Shown here: positions 1,829 to 40,809 of the stretch, one piece after another
Position numbering within the stretch: position 1 is the stretch's first letter
How the letters are laid out: every line of letters starts with the position of its first letter
Source: Escherichia phage vB_EcoM-P3322
Sequence record: PV191315.1
DNA: 64,000 nucleotides
Strand: one strand, 5' to 3'
The notes under the pieces: model-generated
Databases searched by the model: none
What the model was told of the DNA's origin: nothing
What the model saw: the letters and a program-made list of their open reading frames with translations, nothing else
Program-made: the position numbers and the translations under genes

Positions 1829-2112
1829 CGTGCCTTCTCCCGATCTGCATCTAATTTCAACAAGAAAGCTGTATACTCTTCCGAACCTTGGTGTAAAAAC
1901 ATGTGATAAGAGCTTACCAGTTTCTTCGTTGTCGTATAACGTTCCATTTCCCCAACAACACCTCCACCTAGTGTGTAGAGCACAATACCTTCAACTCCAA
2001 CATAGGTTACTACTTCAACCAAATCTGTGTTATCCCAATAGTAGTTAGGTGACACAATAAGATCGCCCACTGCCAGTTTAATGTTTGCTACTTCATCTTG
2101 TGAATAATACAT
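1825..2112 (-). CDS. hypothetical protein
   Basis: Track ORF 1825..2211; start moved to ATG at 2112 (MYYSQDE...) preceded by AGAGGAG. Confidence 0.45.
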   Translation of the reverse strand: MYYSQDEVANIKLAVGDLIVSPNYYWDNTDLVEVVTYVGVEGIVLYTLGGGVVGEMERYTTTKKLVSSYHMFLHQGSEEYTAFLLKLDADREKAR

Positions 2113-2149
2113 TTGGTTCTCCTCTCTTAATTGATGGAAATAGTATACC

Positions 2150-2641
2150 TTACCACATAATCTCGCGCAACTCTTTTTCTTCTTTAAAATTACGCAAGTT
2201 TTCCAGTGCACGGTTTAGGTCTTCTTCCGTCTCTGCTTTCTGGACTTTTTCCATCATTTTCGCAACAATATTTTTCTTAACTTGCAAATCTGGAACAGGC
2301 ATACGTTTTTCCATTTCATAAACTTCTCGTTTATGACGTTCCTCCATCTCTGCTTTTTCTTTTACCCAATCCGCCTCGTCCATTGCACCTTTGCAGACAC
2401 AAGTGTAACCTTTAATAGTATAATCACCATGTTCAATACCAGGTTGAAGAGCTAAGGCTTCATTACCACAATACGCGCACAACGGACGACCCGGCATTTT
2501 CAAAGTTTTGGTAGCCTTAGCGCCACATTGACTATCCCAGCTTGTTTTATAACTGGAACCATCATCTCCGTGAGAACGACCGACTAAGAAGTTACGGAAG
2601 AAGCCAGTAGCACGTTCGTCGATGTAGTCAGGGTAAGCCAT
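2150..2641 (-). CDS. hypothetical Cys-rich protein (possible zinc ribbon)
   Basis: Track ORF 163 aa; AAGGAG SD; Cys pairs CAYCGNE...CVCKG. Confidence 0.55.
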   Translation of the reverse strand: MAYPDYIDERATGFFRNFLVGRSHGDDGSSYKTSWDSQCGAKATKTLKMPGRPLCAYCGNEALALQPGIEHGDYTIKGYTCVCKGAMDEADWVKEKAEMEERHKREVYEMEKRMPVPDLQVKKNIVAKMMEKVQKAETEEDLNRALENLRNFKEEKELREIMW

Positions 2642-2654
2642 TGTATTTCTCCTT

Positions 2655-2948
2655 TCACATTAAGACACGTTTTGTGTCGATGGGTGCATTATCAAACATG
2701 TTAAGAACATTGTCAAGCAGTTTTACTAATTCGTTTGTAATTTGTTCCTTTGAACGGGAGGAAGTGAGCACTTTGCTTTCACCAACAATATGCATAACTT
2801 TTATAGGAGCGTCTAAAATGATGTTGTGCTGACGATCCTCTTCAAAAGAAGCCAACCATTTCTCATTGTTACCGTGCAAGGCTACAATCACACCAAAACC
2901 GTTAATTGTTTCAGAAATATTCTTAGTTGCTAAAGTAATGTTCATCAT
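2655..2948 (-). CDS. hypothetical protein
   Basis: Track ORF 97 aa; first gene of leftward block. Confidence 0.5.
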   Translation of the reverse strand: MMNITLATKNISETINGFGVIVALHGNNEKWLASFEEDRQHNIILDAPIKVMHIVGESKVLTSSRSKEQITNELVKLLDNVLNMFDNAPIDTKRVLM

Positions 2949-2973
2949 CTACCTCTCTTGTTAATGTTCATAC

Positions 2974-3001
2974 ATGATACCTGAAAATAATTTCAGATCA
3001 A
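2974..3001 (-). promoter_or_regulatory. candidate sigma70-type promoter for leftward block (TTGATC-N16-TATCAT on minus strand)
   Basis: Hexamers read on minus strand in the divergent intergenic region; near-palindrome CTGAAAATAATTTCAG (2981-2996) sits in the spacer. Confidence 0.3.
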
Positions 3002-3004
3002 GTA

Positions 3005-3032
3005 TTGACATACTTTTTAATCTTGTTAAGAT
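3005..3032 (+). promoter_or_regulatory. candidate sigma70-type promoter (TTGACA-N16-TAAGAT)
   Basis: Consensus -35 at 3005-3010, -10 at 3027-3032, about 30 nt before the first plus-strand gene. Confidence 0.4.
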
Positions 3033-3062
3033 CAACTCCTACCAAACAAAAGGAGAAAACAA

Positions 3063-3506
3063 ATGCAAAACATCCAAAACATCAAACTGACTTGGCCCGA
3101 AGCTAAAGAAGCAATGAAGGAAGGTAGACGTGTTGAGCACCGCCATTTTTGTGGTGGCGAATGGTTTGAGATGCGAGATGGTGTTATTCTCGACGAACAA
3201 GGTTATAACATGGAAACTTGGTTCAGAGGGGAAGCTTGGCAGGAAGAGGGTTGGTCTGTAATTGAAAAAGAAGACAGTAAGGAAGAAGGCGTGTTGTCTA
3301 ATGTAGAACGCGAGATGAGGGAAACAAAGATACCTGCTTTGGATTTTGTATACCTGGAAGAACTTGTGGCAGCATCTTTTGTAGCAGGAAACCTTTGGAA
3401 TACACCTGTTAGCCGACTGGAGAACCTAAATAACCCGTCTGCTCGTAATCACAAGCTTTATAAGGGTAAAGGTCACAACAAATTAAAGAAAGGAAAGAAG
3501 AAATGA
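3063..3506 (+). CDS. hypothetical early protein; N-terminus recalls DUF2829-type small phage proteins
   Basis: Track ORF 147 aa; strong SD AAAAGGAGAAAAC; motif WPEAKEAMKEGRRVEHRHF; Lys-rich tail. Confidence 0.5.
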   Translation: MQNIQNIKLTWPEAKEAMKEGRRVEHRHFCGGEWFEMRDGVILDEQGYNMETWFRGEAWQEEGWSVIEKEDSKEEGVLSNVEREMRETKIPALDFVYLEELVAASFVAGNLWNTPVSRLENLNNPSARNHKLYKGKGHNKLKKGKKK

Positions 3507-3652
3507 TCTACAAAAACAAGTTCACTGGTTGTCTCCGTAAATTTATCAATAAGAAAGGGTATGTTTCTCTTGACAAGGGTGTTACGTGGGTGCAAAATGG
3601 CACTTCAGAACAACTGATCAAGGCTTTACCTTACTATGAGGAGGTTTTATGA
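3503..3652 (+). CDS. small hypothetical protein (49 aa)
   Basis: Not in track; ATG 3503 overlaps upstream stop (ATGA) and its stop overlaps next start; MIYKNKFTGCLRKFINKKGYVSLDKGVTWVQNGTSEQLIKALPYYEEVL. Confidence 0.4.
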   Translation: MIYKNKFTGCLRKFINKKGYVSLDKGVTWVQNGTSEQLIKALPYYEEVL

Positions 3653-3909
3653 CACTTTATCACGTAACTACAGAAGGCGACTGTGAAGGCCGCACTACAA
3701 AAGATTTGGGGTATGTTGAAGCAGATTCACCTGAACATGCTATCAAATACCTGCATTCCATCGGGAAGTATGCGGGTTATGAGTATACTATCTACGAGGT
3801 TGAAATTATTAACCTTATACAAGTGGCAACTCCTATGGCAGAGTTGAAACATCTTAAGGCAAAAGTAAGACCTGGTATAGTGTCCGATTACAAAGGGGAA
3901 GTAAAGTGA
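3649..3909 (+). CDS. hypothetical protein
   Basis: Track ORF 86 aa; SD GAGGAGG. Confidence 0.5.
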   Translation: MTLYHVTTEGDCEGRTTKDLGYVEADSPEHAIKYLHSIGKYAGYEYTIYEVEIINLIQVATPMAELKHLKAKVRPGIVSDYKGEVK

Positions 3910-4118
3910 GTGGATGGATTAAAGTATCTGGTACCGAGGATGTTCCTATCGGAGAGTGGCTTGTAATCATGGCAAACGGCAAGAAGGGATTCTGTGAAGT
4001 TAACAAAACACGCAATGGCACGATAGCTGTTATCAATGGTCATTTTTATTTTGACTTGGCACCTGTGATCGCATACCATGCACTACCAACATATGAAGAG
4101 GAGATTAACAATGGCTAA
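3906..4118 (+). CDS. hypothetical protein
   Basis: Track ORF 70 aa; GTG start overlapping upstream stop. Confidence 0.45.
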   Translation: MSGWIKVSGTEDVPIGEWLVIMANGKKGFCEVNKTRNGTIAVINGHFYFDLAPVIAYHALPTYEEEINNG

Positions 4119-4428
4119 CAAAGAACCACATGTATATACTGCACTGGTAAAGCACTTGAACAAAGAACGTAACAGGATCATTGCAGATTATCGTAAATTT
4201 AAACGTAATAGTCTAAATCGTAAATACATGCCACATGCAGCTTTTGACGCTACACGTGCAGTATTTCGTGCAAAGATTGCGGAAATGGATAATCTGCTTA
4301 AGCTTGCACGATTATCTATTCATGCATCCAAAGTAACAGGAGTCACTCACTTCTTTGACTTCGATACTAAAGCACTATATGCACCAGAAGCAGGTGAACA
4401 ATTGATTTATCTACTTACCAAAAAATAA
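4111..4428 (+). CDS. hypothetical protein
   Basis: Track ORF 4078..4428; start moved to ATG 4111 (MANKEPHVY) after GAAGAGGAG. Confidence 0.5.
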   Translation: MANKEPHVYTALVKHLNKERNRIIADYRKFKRNSLNRKYMPHAAFDATRAVFRAKIAEMDNLLKLARLSIHASKVTGVTHFFDFDTKALYAPEAGEQLIYLLTKK

Positions 4429-4431
4429 GTG

Positions 4432-4460
4432 TTGACTTTTTTCAAAAAATATGCTACCCT
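4432..4460 (+). promoter_or_regulatory. possible promoter (TTGACT -35 with weak -10); shares 15-nt motif AAAATAAGTGTTGAC with 17354-17368
   Basis: Good -35 but only weak -10 candidates; lies at the start of a 175-nt structured intergenic region. Confidence 0.25.
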
Positions 4461-4604
4461 AACCCCGAAGGGTCGAGCGATAGCGAGTATAGATTATGTA
4501 ATAGATTAATCTCTATCGTTAGATGTTCGAAGAACAGAGATTTAAGTACTTGTTCTTATCGGTAGATGATCGTAAGATCAAGAACAATAATAGGAGAGTG
4601 TGTT

Positions 4605-12037: not shown

Positions 12038-13864
12038 ATGAAAGATTTGTACCAAGATGTTTTTTCTTTTTTAGATCGCACTTCAGAAACATACACTAGA
12101 GAGAATGCAAACAAACCTTCCCACCTCGTTAACACGCATAGGGATCTCTTGGCGGGGATTTTAAGCAAACATATGGCAATGACACAGATACTGCCAAAAA
12201 ACTTGTCAGAATGGCATACAGAAGGTTTTGGACATATTCACGACTTGGATTATCTGCTCTCTCCTCTTACAAACTGTTGTCTTGTTAATTATCAAGATAT
12301 GTTAGAAAATGGTTTTAAGATCGGTGCTGCACAGATAGAAAAACCAAAATCTATTGGAGTAGCTACCACAGTGCTAACTCAAATCATCCAAGCTGTAGCA
12401 TCGAGCCAGTATGGTGGACAGACTTGTGCGCATATTGACGAGGGATTAAAACAATACGTAGAAAAAAGCTACAACAAAATCTTTAATAATCTCAGCAAAA
12501 ATTATCGTGGTCCTAATACAGAGGACTTAGAGAAAAGGGCGATGGAAGTGGTGGACAGTCTTGTTTATGACGCAATGCAAACACTTCTGTATCAAGTTAA
12601 TACCTTGATGAGTGTGAATGGTCAATCACCATTCATCACTATCAGCCTCGGCTTGGACACCTCTGTTTTTGGACGAATGATCACTAAGAACTATTTAAAG
12701 GTTCATACAGGAGGTCTTGGGAAGGATCGCGTGACCCCAGTATTCCCGAAAGTCGTGTTCTTCCTGAAAGACGGGGTGAATATGAAACCGGGTGACCCGA
12801 ATTACGATCTCAAGCAACTGGCAATGGAATGTTGTGCAGAAAGGATTTACCCTGATTTCATCTCTGTTCCACTGAACATGGAAGTCACAGGATCTTCAGA
12901 TGGCAAGGTTACAAGCATGGGTTGCAGAAGCTTCCTTTCTCACTATGCCACCGAACAAGGAGAAAAATACGATGGACGATTCAACCTTGGAGTAGTTTCT
13001 ATCAACTTACCTCTGATCGCTGCGGAAGCGAGAAGTAAAGGAGAATCTTTCACCGATCTTCTTAATAAACATATGGAGATAGCCTACGATGCTCACATGC
13101 TACGTGTAAACCGTATCAGACATACCAAAGCATCTGAAAACCCTATTCTTTTCATGGAAGGGGCTTTAGCTCGTTTAAATGCCAACGATGAAATTGGTGT
13201 TTTGTTTGAAGGTGGTTATGCTTCTATTAGTATTGGTTATGTAGGTCTTGCCGAAGCTTTGGAAATCCTTTATCCAGAAGAAAAAGATAAAAAGGAACTT
13301 GGTAAAAACATTCTGCAACATATGAAAGATGTGTGTGCTGTGTTTAAAGAACGATCTAATTTGGCGTTTAGTCTCTATGGAACTCCAGCAGAATCTTTGT
13401 GCTATAAGTTTGCAACAGCTTTAAATGAAAAATACCCAGGTTTGGTAGAAAGAGACTATCTTACTAACTCTTTTCATCAACCTGTGTGGTTGGTAACAAA
13501 CCCTTTTGAAAAATGGGATTATGAAGCAGGTTTTGCACAGATTAGTAATGGTGGTAACATAAGTTATGTCGAAACACCAAACTTAAAGAATAACTTAGAA
13601 GCTTTGGAAACTTTAGTAGACTACGCTTATGAACATATTCACTATTTTGGTATTAATCAGCCCGTGGATCAATGCTTTAAGTGTGGTTTTCATGGGGAAT
13701 TTAAGGCAACGGCTAAAGGGTTTGAGTGTCCTGATTGTGGCAACCATGAAGAAGAAACTATTTCTGTAGTTAGACGTGTATCAGGGTATCTTTCTGCCCC
13801 TAATTCACGGCCTTATAACAAAGGTAAAATGCAGGAAGTTTTGCAAAGGGAGAAACATTTTTGA
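12038..13864 (+). CDS. nrdD: anaerobic ribonucleoside-triphosphate reductase (class III)
   Basis: 608 aa; C-terminal zinc ribbon CFKCGFHGEF...CPDCGNHEE followed by glycyl-radical-type RVSGYLS; next gene is a radical-SAM activase. Confidence 0.8.
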   Translation: MKDLYQDVFSFLDRTSETYTRENANKPSHLVNTHRDLLAGILSKHMAMTQILPKNLSEWHTEGFGHIHDLDYLLSPLTNCCLVNYQDMLENGFKIGAAQIEKPKSIGVATTVLTQIIQAVASSQYGGQTCAHIDEGLKQYVEKSYNKIFNNLSKNYRGPNTEDLEKRAMEVVDSLVYDAMQTLLYQVNTLMSVNGQSPFITISLGLDTSVFGRMITKNYLKVHTGGLGKDRVTPVFPKVVFFLKDGVNMKPGDPNYDLKQLAMECCAERIYPDFISVPLNMEVTGSSDGKVTSMGCRSFLSHYATEQGEKYDGRFNLGVVSINLPLIAAEARSKGESFTDLLNKHMEIAYDAHMLRVNRIRHTKASENPILFMEGALARLNANDEIGVLFEGGYASISIGYVGLAEALEILYPEEKDKKELGKNILQHMKDVCAVFKERSNLAFSLYGTPAESLCYKFATALNEKYPGLVERDYLTNSFHQPVWLVTNPFEKWDYEAGFAQISNGGNISYVETPNLKNNLEALETLVDYAYEHIHYFGINQPVDQCFKCGFHGEFKATAKGFECPDCGNHEEETISVVRRVSGYLSAPNSRPYNKGKMQEVLQREKHF

Positions 13865-23928: not shown

Positions 23929-24173
23929 TCGACGAGCTTGCCTCTCAAGTCATAGAAAATTATTGGCGCGAGAGAGAAGCTTTCATTATGCGCAGTCTCA
24001 AAGAGTATTTCATTGGGACTGTGCGAATGGAAGATATTGTAAGTAGAGTAGAGATTCATGTATGGCCTGATTATGAAGAATGGGTTGACAAAGAAAATGA
24101 AAATGCTATAATTCTTCGTATATACAAACCGGAGATAACATTAGGAGGAAGAAGTGTTAAACTTCGAAATTGA
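23925..24173 (+). CDS. hypothetical protein
   Basis: Track ORF 82 aa; ATGA overlap. Confidence 0.45.
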   Translation: MIDELASQVIENYWREREAFIMRSLKEYFIGTVRMEDIVSRVEIHVWPDYEEWVDKENENAIILRIYKPEITLGGRSVKLRN

Positions 24174-38133: not shown

Positions 38134-40809
38134 TTAGTCGTAATATTTCAAACCTGTAATGAACTTCGATCCCCAATCCGCACTTGCGGCGGTGAACGTC
38201 AACATCCAAGTTGTAGCTGTACCAGTGAAGACCTCTCGTTGCACAGTACCATCAGTGTGGTAAATGTCCACGCCAGTATGTCCATTCTTAGGAATAGTGA
38301 AGGTAACAGCACTGGTAGTGTCTCGTGCATAAGAACAAACAAATGGTGTCCCCGCCCAAACTGGATTTGTCATATCACCCATCTCAAGCTGTGGAACCCA
38401 AGCAATAAGACCTGCCGTACCATCTCCTGCGAAAGTGTCTGATCCACTTGCATTCAAAGCTATAATCTCATAGGTTATAGATGCTTGTTTGGCAACTGTC
38501 ACTTTGTGTAGAATTACACGATACCAACCATTCCCCATATCGATTATGTTTGCATCTGCACCTGTAAATGTTCCAGCTACAAGATCATAAGTCCCTTCGT
38601 TAATCTCATCTCCTGAAGTCAATTTGAGTTTCACTTTAGTGATCCCATCTGGCTTCAAGAATACGGATGCCGCCCAGTGCTTACCTGCTGTAATATCAGA
38701 AGCTGTATTCACTGCTGATAAAATATGTTGTCCTGAAGTTGTAGAAGGTGTTAACTTGTAAGTGTTAGCCGTAGTTCCAACCGGAGAGTTGATTGTTGAT
38801 GCTGTGACTGTCAAGTTCGTCTTCAACCACGGGGAAGCTGTTGTCAAGTTATTGTTGATAAAGATATGTGTACGGTTGGCTGCTACAACACGTCTACCTT
38901 GTGGAGTTGTACCAACATATTCTAAAGGTGCTACGGGAGCAGAACTCTCTGTAGGTACAAGGATATCTCCAGAAGCCCTGGCATAACGGTTACTCCTGTT
39001 GACCTTTACATCCGCCGGAATAGTTTCTTGCGTCAAATCATAATCCATCACAATCACCACAGCATTCACTGTGAGATAAGAACTATCTTCGGCAGTTACC
39101 ACACCTTGATAAGTTGCTCTACAACCGATACGACAACCTCCATCAGCAACCGCTGTAATAACGCCTGTAACAGGGTCAACTGTTGCTACCGTAGGGTCAT
39201 TAGAGAAATACTCAACAACCATACCAGGTAAGCTTGCTGCTCCTGTTGGCGTTATTTCTGCTACCATTGTTTGTGTTGTTCCTACATCCATCGCAGATAA
39301 GCTAGGGGTGTAAACACTCAATGTTGAAGCATATCCTCCAGAGGTATCTGATAAAGTTGTTCCTTCGGCGTTTAAGGCTGTCATACCTGCATCAAAACCA
39401 CCTTCTGCATGGAAAGTCATTAAACCAGTAGATGATATTGTCATGTTTGCAGGGGCAGAAGAAGTGTATTTAATATTGAAAAGTTTACCTCCTTCTGGGC
39501 TAACAGAATGTGTCAACTGTTTAGTTCCACCTACAATACAAATTCCTAAAGAATCTGTAGTTAAGCCAGTTGCCAGAATATCACCCGTAATCACGGAGCT
39601 TGCTATTGGTGTGAATTTATTATAGTTTAGACCGCTATTGAACAGATACGAGGCTTTCCCATCTTTCCAAATACCGGAATAATACATATCTCCATTATAA
39701 ACGAAAAAGGTTCCTTGATAACCTAATTGGTTAGTAACATCCATATTCAGCGTATGAACGCTTGTGAGCTTGTTTATATCCCAAGAACCAACTCCTTCAG
39801 GTTTAACTGGTTTTCCCACTTGGAGTGGATCTCCGCTCGCAGAATCATACCCCAAACCTAAGTTTGCAGTGTAGTTCTTACCAATAGCCCACAAGGAATT
39901 ATTGATCCCAACGAAAAAAGAGTGGCGGCTTGGTGGAAACTTCCATGTTGAGAAACCTGCTGCAAAGGTATCCAGTTTAGTGTAGGTTGTTTCTGTATTA
40001 GACCTAACATATAAGTAGTTTACTGTACCCGTGCCACCGGAGGTATCTCCTACAACTATTGTCTGGGAAACTGTATTGATGTAATCTTTGACATACACTG
40101 TTTCAGTAGCGGATATCTTAGCATTGACAAAAGCTGTTGTTGTGTTATTATTACCTGCTAAACCTTTACTAGCTCCACAAACACGCAAGGTTCCCACATT
40201 GTTGACATAAGAGCATTGGTTGTAACCTGCATCAAAAGCAACTGCTGCACTTGTTATCTGACGAGGAGTAGAAACTTCGTTAGTAGTACTTGCACCTAAA
40301 CTGCCTACTGTGTTTTGACCTGATCCATAAAGAACACCACTATTCATTAACCAGAGAGTGTTGTTATATCCTCCCTTAACCTCTTTAAGATTAGCTAAAG
40401 AGATAGTCCCTGTTATTACAGATGGAAAGCTGGTCCAAGTAGTTACACATGCGTCCGTACCACCTGCTGCTATAGATCCTACCAATCCTGCTGTCAATCC
40501 TGAATATTGCCATCCTCCACTGTTAGTTTTAATAACAAAACAACGATCTGCGGTAAACACATCCGCTACTACAGTAGAAGCCAAGTGGAAATTATTGAAT
40601 CGTGCACTACGAGTTCCATCTGCAATCTCACCAAAAAGGTTTGCGCCTTGAGTAAACAATCTACCATCATTAAGCAAAATTGCTAAACTGCTGTTAGAAT
40701 TACCAGCATTATCTGGGTAATCTAAAGTGATTACTTTTTTAACAATACCCGCTGGCAGAGGAACGACACCAGTGCTGGTCATAATAGTAAATATTGGAAT
40801 TGGAAACAT
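38134..40809 (-). CDS. tail fibre / receptor-binding protein (891 aa)
   Basis: Large Gly/Thr/Ser/Asn-rich beta-type protein at the distal end of the tail module; SD GGAGGG. Confidence 0.45.
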   Translation of the reverse strand: MFPIPIFTIMTSTGVVPLPAGIVKKVITLDYPDNAGNSNSSLAILLNDGRLFTQGANLFGEIADGTRSARFNNFHLASTVVADVFTADRCFVIKTNSGGWQYSGLTAGLVGSIAAGGTDACVTTWTSFPSVITGTISLANLKEVKGGYNNTLWLMNSGVLYGSGQNTVGSLGASTTNEVSTPRQITSAAVAFDAGYNQCSYVNNVGTLRVCGASKGLAGNNNTTTAFVNAKISATETVYVKDYINTVSQTIVVGDTSGGTGTVNYLYVRSNTETTYTKLDTFAAGFSTWKFPPSRHSFFVGINNSLWAIGKNYTANLGLGYDSASGDPLQVGKPVKPEGVGSWDINKLTSVHTLNMDVTNQLGYQGTFFVYNGDMYYSGIWKDGKASYLFNSGLNYNKFTPIASSVITGDILATGLTTDSLGICIVGGTKQLTHSVSPEGGKLFNIKYTSSAPANMTISSTGLMTFHAEGGFDAGMTALNAEGTTLSDTSGGYASTLSVYTPSLSAMDVGTTQTMVAEITPTGAASLPGMVVEYFSNDPTVATVDPVTGVITAVADGGCRIGCRATYQGVVTAEDSSYLTVNAVVIVMDYDLTQETIPADVKVNRSNRYARASGDILVPTESSAPVAPLEYVGTTPQGRRVVAANRTHIFINNNLTTASPWLKTNLTVTASTINSPVGTTANTYKLTPSTTSGQHILSAVNTASDITAGKHWAASVFLKPDGITKVKLKLTSGDEINEGTYDLVAGTFTGADANIIDMGNGWYRVILHKVTVAKQASITYEIIALNASGSDTFAGDGTAGLIAWVPQLEMGDMTNPVWAGTPFVCSYARDTTSAVTFTIPKNGHTGVDIYHTDGTVQREVFTGTATTWMLTFTAASADWGSKFITGLKYYD

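Follow-up and report, generated by a model that had tools for sequence, protein, structure and literature searches.

The stretch of DNA analysed here (the window: 64,000 nucleotides of Escherichia phage vB_EcoM-P3322, sequence record PV191315.1) is a phAPEC8-like Phapecoctavirus genome, judged by its sequence identity of 98–100% to phAPEC8 and other Phapecoctavirus members. The region 2400–3700 is 98% identical to Escherichia phage phAPEC8 and matches 126 phage records, nearly all of which belong to Stephanstirmvirinae (Phapecoctavirus, Justusliebigvirus). The 251 bases around the intergenic gap described below are shared at 100% identity with phAPEC8 and with several further phages; identities to relatives, phi92 among them, go down to about 75%. 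The sign of the GC skew flips at about 3 kb, matching the switch of the coding strand from a leftward to a rightward gene block. In the list of open reading frames, the ORFs 2655–2948(−) and 3063–3506(+) bound a gap of 114 bp. The genes and the elements predicted in the gap are as follows.

2655–2948, minus strand: first gene of the leftward block, coding for a DUF7325 protein (ORF list; Pfam DUF7325, E=5e-24)
2951–2956, minus strand: putative Shine-Dalgarno sequence of the leftward gene, AGAGGT (ACCTCT on the plus strand, without variation among the 14 distinct sequences of alignment A1)
2974–2979, minus strand: predicted leftward −10 hexamer, TATCAT (consensus scan; T1 at 2979, A2 at 2978 and T6 at 2974 invariant in all relatives)
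2981–2996, no strand assigned: near-palindrome CTGAAAATAATTTCAG, with 7 of 8 dyad pairs, filling the spacer of the leftward promoter
2984–2994, plus strand: UP-element-like 11-mer AAAATAATTTC, a candidate distal subsite at about −57 to −47 of the rightward promoter (9/11 matches to AAAWWTWTTTT)
2996–3001, minus strand: predicted leftward −35 hexamer, TTGATC (consensus scan; TTGA at 3001–2998 invariant; annotated in FBKp34)
3005–3010, plus strand: predicted rightward −35 hexamer, TTGACA (consensus scan; TTGAC invariant in 24 relatives; annotated in ASO2A and FBKp34)
3024–3032, plus strand: predicted rightward extended −10 element, TGtTAAGAT (hexamer TAAGAT at 3027–3032; TG, T1, A2 and T6 invariant)
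3050–3055, plus strand: putative Shine-Dalgarno sequence of the rightward gene, AAGGAG (AGGAG at 3051–3055 invariant in alignment A1)
3063–3506, plus strand: first gene of the rightward block, coding for a protein of 147 aa (ORF list; phrog_22208 and an N-terminal phrog_3474 module)

The leftward gene begins with ATGATG at 2943–2948, that is, with two in-frame ATG codons. Of the two, the ATG at 2943–2945 (start at 2945) alone is invariant among the relatives, and 5 nt separate it from the invariant Shine-Dalgarno sequence; the other one, at 2948, is restricted to the phAPEC8 group. The sequence records differ accordingly, the longer ORF being annotated in phAPEC8 and the shorter one in ASO2A and most others. 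Because of this conservation and spacing, the gene probably starts at 2945, and the intergenic gap thus probably measures 117 bp. The 114 bp given in the first-pass annotation agree with the ORF list, but the conserved start codon makes the larger value likelier. Ribosome-binding sites at both Shine-Dalgarno positions are annotated in ESCO13 and phi92; among the Klebsiella phages introduced below, phi1_175008 deviates from the rightward AGGAG.

No Pfam family was found for the product of 3063–3506, the homologues of which in E. coli phages range from 55 to about 183 aa with a constant N-terminus. The ORF 1825–2211(−) of the leftward block matches Phage_tudor (E=2e-24) and is the sole flanking ORF with a named Pfam domain, the other Pfam matches being to DUF families. 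In ASO2A and several relatives, the homologues of 3503–3652 and 3649–3909 are separated by an additional ORF of about 320 bp (ASO2A_244, ASO2A 4250–4573), which is absent from the window (at about 3652) and from phAPEC8. Two exact direct repeats were noticed in the region, TAATGTTCAT at 2936–2945 and 2962–2971, and TCTTGTTAA at 2956–2964 and 3021–3029. The second copy of TAATGTTCAT duplicates the beginning of the leftward ORF and thereby creates an upstream ATG and a mini-ORF of 8 codons, 2971–2945(−); its ATG lies at or before the predicted leftward transcription start and is not conserved. Records of Campylobacter phage A150/C3, Acinetobacter phage ABPW7, Pseudomonas phage PsgM04F and Serratia phage KKP_3264 show 76–94% nucleotide identity to the region, much as the subfamily's E. 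coli members do. The hosts named in these records may be incorrect, or the phages may be culture contaminants.

A consensus scan of the gap predicts two promoters, a rightward one scoring 10/12 with a TG upstream of the −10 hexamer and a leftward one scoring 9/12 without TG, each with a spacer of 16 nt and with 3 bp between the two −35 hexamers. Hexamers close to TTGACA and TATAAT, A2 and T6 of the −10 hexamer, and a spacer within the 16–18 nt range of sigma-70 promoters are present at both. Both are located upstream of, and face, the divergent gene blocks, and the Shine-Dalgarno sequences and start codons follow 20–25 nt past the predicted transcription starts. The number of promoter-like sites in 2 kb (7, versus 4.5 ± 2.0 expected) is not significant by itself; the assignment is based on position and conservation instead.

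For the assessment of conservation, the gap was aligned with that of 19 relatives, and then also with that of four Klebsiella phages of the Stephanstirmvirinae found via the DUF7325 protein (KP13-26, phi1_175008, FBKp34 and FKP3), resulting in 18 distinct sequences. An IMG/VR search for more relatives yielded three loci only, all in clades already represented. Invariant in 24 relatives are the TTGA of both −35 hexamers, T1, A2 and T6 of both −10 hexamers, and the TG of the rightward extended −10 element. The inner positions of the −10 hexamers, much of the rightward spacer and both leaders vary; the rightward −10 hexamer occurs, for example, as TAATCT and TATGAT, and the leftward one as TACAAT (phiWec181) and TAAGAT (Klebsiella phages). 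Functional sigma-70 promoters would be expected to show just such fixation of the key bases combined with drift of the lesser ones. The gap of the Klebsiella phages still aligns though the adjoining genes differ: an extra gene, either a 76-aa ORF or an HD phosphohydrolase, separates the gap from the DUF7325 gene, and the rightward block begins with a different gene as well. The leftward promoter of these phages is nearer to consensus (TTGACA/16/TAAGAT). Depositors have annotated promoters on the homologous hexamers, namely the rightward one in ASO2A (MZ726793) and both in FBKp34 (MW394390); these annotations, like the promoter predictions for phage rV5, are based on consensus matching. A search of the literature for transcript mapping and for start-site or binding data on Stephanstirmvirinae retrieved none. 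With the strand switch at this position, and with the defining bases invariant in 24 relatives while their neighbours vary, we consider it quite probable that the gap contains two host sigma-70-type promoters in back-to-back orientation, as the first-pass annotation had proposed.

Two GATC (Dam) sites coincide with promoter elements, one at 2996–2999 inside the leftward −35 hexamer and the other at 3030–3033 overlapping the rightward −10 hexamer (TAAGATC). Since several relatives have lost both sites (GGTCAA, AATCAA, AAGATT, AATCTT), a role of their methylation is doubtful. The top hexamer matches of the window are found elsewhere, at 24085(+) (TTGACA/16/TATAAT with TG) and at 40124(+) (TTGACA/16/TATTAT with TG); the latter opposes the local coding direction.

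The near-palindrome CTGAAAATAATTTCAG was correctly located at 2981–2996 by the first-pass annotation, as was its position in the leftward spacer, the scan placing TTGATC/16/TATCAT around it. It can alternatively be read as arms CTGAAA and TTTCAG around a 4-nt centre, ATAA. How unusual it is depends on the definition. When the gap is dinucleotide-shuffled, 33% of the shuffles contain an inverted repeat under a loose definition (arms of at least 6 nt, spacer of up to 8 nt), and the window as a whole has 0.42 of these per 114 bp; a 16-mer with at least 7 of 8 pairs is found in 6.5% of the shuffles and 19 times in the window. The near-palindrome is thus borderline unusual at best. A second inverted repeat of the 6-4-6 type, AAGTAT-TGAC-ATACTT at 3000–3015, adjoins it and is centred on the rightward −35 hexamer; it was rejected as a dyad, the relatives showing varying arms (ATGCTT, AAGCTT, ATACTG) without conserved symmetry.

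The near-palindrome had been proposed to be an operator, that is, a site at which a dimeric regulator of the phage or the host switches the early promoters; the inner core GAAA-N4-TTTC might serve instead of the full dyad. Such a regulator would occupy the leftward spacer, just upstream of the rightward −35 hexamer. Overlap with both promoters is a position typical of operators, 16-bp dyads with 7/8 pairs are moderately rare (as judged from the strict shuffles), the inner GAAA and TTTC arms are retained in most of the E. coli-phage relatives, and the phi92 clade even possesses a perfect 12-bp palindrome, GAAATTAATTTC. The symmetry itself, however, is not maintained. Seven of the eight pairs are formed in the phAPEC8 group and, with a different pair mismatched, in the phi92 group, six in BME3, five in PD114, and four in phiWec181, EC_OE_11 and all four Klebsiella phages. 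The outer arms change one-sidedly (CTG to CAG, ACT or TCT; CAG to CAA, CAT, TAT or TCT), and a search of the aligned relatives for compensatory double changes revealed none. Changes in the core are mostly exchanges of A and T, as would be expected for minor-groove or shape readout and not for base-specific half-sites. Neither motif is enriched in the 64-kb window: CTGAAA-N4-TTTCAG with up to two mismatches was found 4 times versus 5.9 expected, and GAAA-N4-TTTC 5 times versus 2.6 expected, a count reached in 16% of the shuffles. The ten flanking ORFs, searched against Pfam and PHROGs, match no DNA-binding family, all hits being to families without a known function (DUF7325, Phage_tudor, unnamed PHROGs), a search which small novel regulators or host factors could escape. 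With a symmetry of 4–7 of 8 pairs among the relatives, no recurrence, no DNA-binding family nearby and a borderline chance level, the operator reading is not supported, and we regard it as improbable. A variant of it, in which a host factor or a small phage protein that has escaped recognition targets the invariant AAA-N3-ATTT core, is given a slightly lower probability still. If so, the two early promoters of Stephanstirmvirinae phages would be silenced or kept in balance by this factor, and such control would be the reason why the cassette persists across E. coli and Klebsiella phages despite exchange of the flanking genes.

What is conserved in the tract is an A/T core of the form AAA-WWW-ATTT, and this core resembles the distal subsite of an UP element, the consensus of which has been given as AAAWWTWTTTT (PMC2412878, PMC11661796). 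The 11-mer AAAATAATTTC matches this consensus in 9 of 11 positions. Invariant within it are the AAA at 2984–2986, A2990, T2991 and T2993, and variation is concentrated at 2987–2989, which correspond to W, W and T of the consensus, mainly by exchange of A and T. The 11-mer ends 10 nt upstream of the rightward −35 hexamer in the window and in each of the 24 relatives, and the rrnB P1 promoter of E. coli has the same spacing. At this fixed offset the relatives score 7–11 of 11, with 10/11 in phiWec181, FBKp34 and phi1_175008 and 11/11 in KP13-26 and FKP3; one clade, with a C at a W position, reaches only 7–8/11. At the base composition of the window, scores of at least 9/11 have a background frequency of 0.0032 per position, and neither strand of the 64 kb contains an 11/11 match. 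Among the 197 promoter-like sites of the window, two have a score of at least 9/11 at the rrnB offset, compared to about 0.6 expected by chance; the other one, at 12185(−), has weak hexamers and opposes the local direction of transcription. No UP-like tract at the rrnB offset accompanies the sites at 24085(+) and 40124(+).

A full UP element is not present, a distal subsite being the most that can be recognised. The proximal subsite (AAAAAARNR, about −46 to −38) is absent because its place is occupied by the leftward −35 hexamer, AGATCAAGTA. A canonical UP match for the leftward promoter was considered at the mirror position, 3012–3022, and dismissed, about 5 of 11 positions agreeing by eye; only an A5 tract near −50 and an invariant TTT at 3016–3018 are seen there. 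The palindromic appearance of the tract at 2981–2996 would find a simple explanation in the UP consensus, since AAAWWTWTTTT is nearly self-complementary.

Against this stands the possibility that the palindrome is without function, a chance near-dyad in an A/T-rich spacer. The promoters would then be real, but sigma alone would read the tract, and its retention in relatives would be due to shared ancestry and to the requirement for a spacer of 16 nt, perhaps together with a general preference for A/T-rich spacers. The frequency of comparable repeats in the gap shuffles and the 19 dyad 16-mers of the window are consistent with this explanation, as is the degree of conservation. Variable columns make up 7 of 16 in the tract versus 26 of 49 at the other non-hexamer positions of spacer and leaders, so that the tract is not significantly more conserved (p=0.57); it had seemed so in the E. 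coli phages alone, but the effect was gone once the Klebsiella phages were added. All relatives share ancestry, moreover, which limits the power of any argument from conservation. What the chance explanation does not readily account for is the invariance of the AAA and ATT/T blocks in all clades, the perfect 11/11 UP consensus attained by two distant Klebsiella phages instead of a drift away from it, and the offset from the rightward −35 hexamer, which is exactly that of rrnB P1. We consider a functionless dyad unlikely, albeit a serious contender. The UP-element reading, for its part, was reached after the fact, and conservation of the A/T core might equally be explained by its role as leftward spacer or by common descent; as the bases of the 11-mer are at the same time the spacer of the leftward promoter, the constraints exerted by the two promoters are inseparable by sequence alone. 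For the core of the near-palindrome working as an UP element of the rightward promoter, we estimate a chance just short of even odds.

Two further explanations were weighed. The tract could be a binding or bending site of a host nucleoid protein such as IHF that shapes the divergent promoter region. The consensus sequence of IHF sites is WATCAANNNNTTR. The sequence GATCAAGTATTGA, which follows the A/T tract, resembles it in 7 of 9 specified positions, and the A/T core is conserved; the matching bases, however, are those of the two −35 hexamers, which already account for their conservation, and the TT of the consensus is replaced by TG, making an IHF site very improbable. Comparison by eye with the consensus sequences of Fis and CRP sites gave no fit. 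Formation of an RNA or DNA hairpin, as part of a terminator, a processing site or an origin structure, was also considered. The calculated energies of −5.7 (plus strand) and −7.5 (minus strand) kcal/mol are better than those of shuffled sequences (z = −3.8 and −3.2, respectively). But the palindrome lies upstream of both predicted transcription starts and would thus be transcribed from neither promoter, the stem is weak and not maintained in relatives, no U-tract follows, a terminator scan of 2000–4000 was empty, and Rfam returned no match at threshold (single hit, E=0.79). Hence, we assign to a hairpin function hardly any probability.

Taken as a whole, the locus is best explained as a divergent early-promoter region in which the core of the near-palindrome is an UP-like distal subsite of the rightward promoter and not an operator, an interpretation to which we attach a probability of roughly 55%. 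In the mechanism that we infer for this arrangement, host RNA polymerase with sigma-70 would recognise both promoters upon entry of the DNA; that they are early promoters is suggested by their consensus character and by the numerous small ORFs that follow. Of the rightward promoter, TTGACA would be contacted by sigma-70 region 4 and TGtTAAGAT by regions 3.0 and 2.4, while one alpha C-terminal domain would bind the narrow minor groove of the A/T tract at about −52, raising promoter strength. Transcription would start near 3039 in rightward and near 2967 in leftward direction, and about 22 nt of leader, including a Shine-Dalgarno sequence, would precede the coding region of either transcript. 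The leftward promoter (9/12, no TG), the spacer of which is formed by the same tract, would be the weaker one in this phage. Since the upstream contacts of each polymerase would cover core elements of the other promoter, the two promoters should compete, a polymerase at one of them interfering with the other.

The region thus appears to be an ordinary divergent early-promoter region that is in part annotated already in the records of relatives. The analysis gives no pointer to a new regulatory system, and its importance beyond annotation seems small, with the UP-like tract as a reasonable refinement. It does provide a better-supported promoter map of the main divergent early junction of phAPEC8- and phi92-type phages, which are of relevance to phage therapy and biocontrol, and a probable correction of the start codon of the leftward gene. 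The rightward promoter looks strong, with its consensus −35 hexamer, extended −10 element and UP-like tract, and could possibly be used as a compact expression element. As a natural case of DNA common to two promoters, the region might also lend itself to the study of promoter interference.

Among known regulatory systems, the operators of the OR/OL type of phage lambda, which are bound by Cro and CI, likewise consist of near-dyads of about 16 bp over divergent promoter elements. Here, in contrast, the dyad occurs in a single copy in the 64-kb window of a lytic phage, its half-sites are not conserved, and no helix-turn-helix gene is recognised among the ten flanking ORFs. The early promoters of phage T4, a large lytic coliphage, are strong promoters served by the host polymerase, as the rightward promoter would be here, and A/T-rich upstream tracts near −42 and −52 add to their strength. 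Such a tract is general to the early promoter class of T4, whereas in the 64-kb window it accompanies just one promoter-like site with strong hexamers. Upstream elements of T4 early promoters are mentioned in PMC2412878. For the related myovirus rV5, bidirectional promoters have been predicted at genes 10/11, at a comparable strand-switch junction (PMC3606486); the likeness is one of architecture. The records of FBKp34 (MW394390) and ASO2A (MZ726793) contain the homologous intergenic region with the same hexamers and make no mention of the A/T tract.

The closest parallel to the rightward promoter is rrnB P1 of E. coli, the textbook example of a promoter with an UP element, in which an 11-mer of A-tract and T-tract (AAAATTATTTT in rrnB, AAAATAATTTC here) is likewise followed by 10 nt, the −35 hexamer, a 16-nt spacer and the −10 hexamer. 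All 5,426 E. coli genomes contain the rrnB P1 sequence AAAATTATTTT-AAATTTCCTC-TTGTCA-(16 nt)-TATAAT; the copy inspected is located between murI and a 16S rRNA gene. The UP element of rrnB P1 was reportedly described by Ross and co-workers in 1993 and by Estrem and co-workers in 1998. The two promoters differ in that the candidate phage site comprises a distal subsite only, with an opposing −35 hexamer in the place of the proximal one, and in that the phage promoter combines a consensus −35 hexamer with an extended −10 element. If the UP-element reading holds, docking of the alpha C-terminal domain upstream of the −35 hexamer would be common to both.
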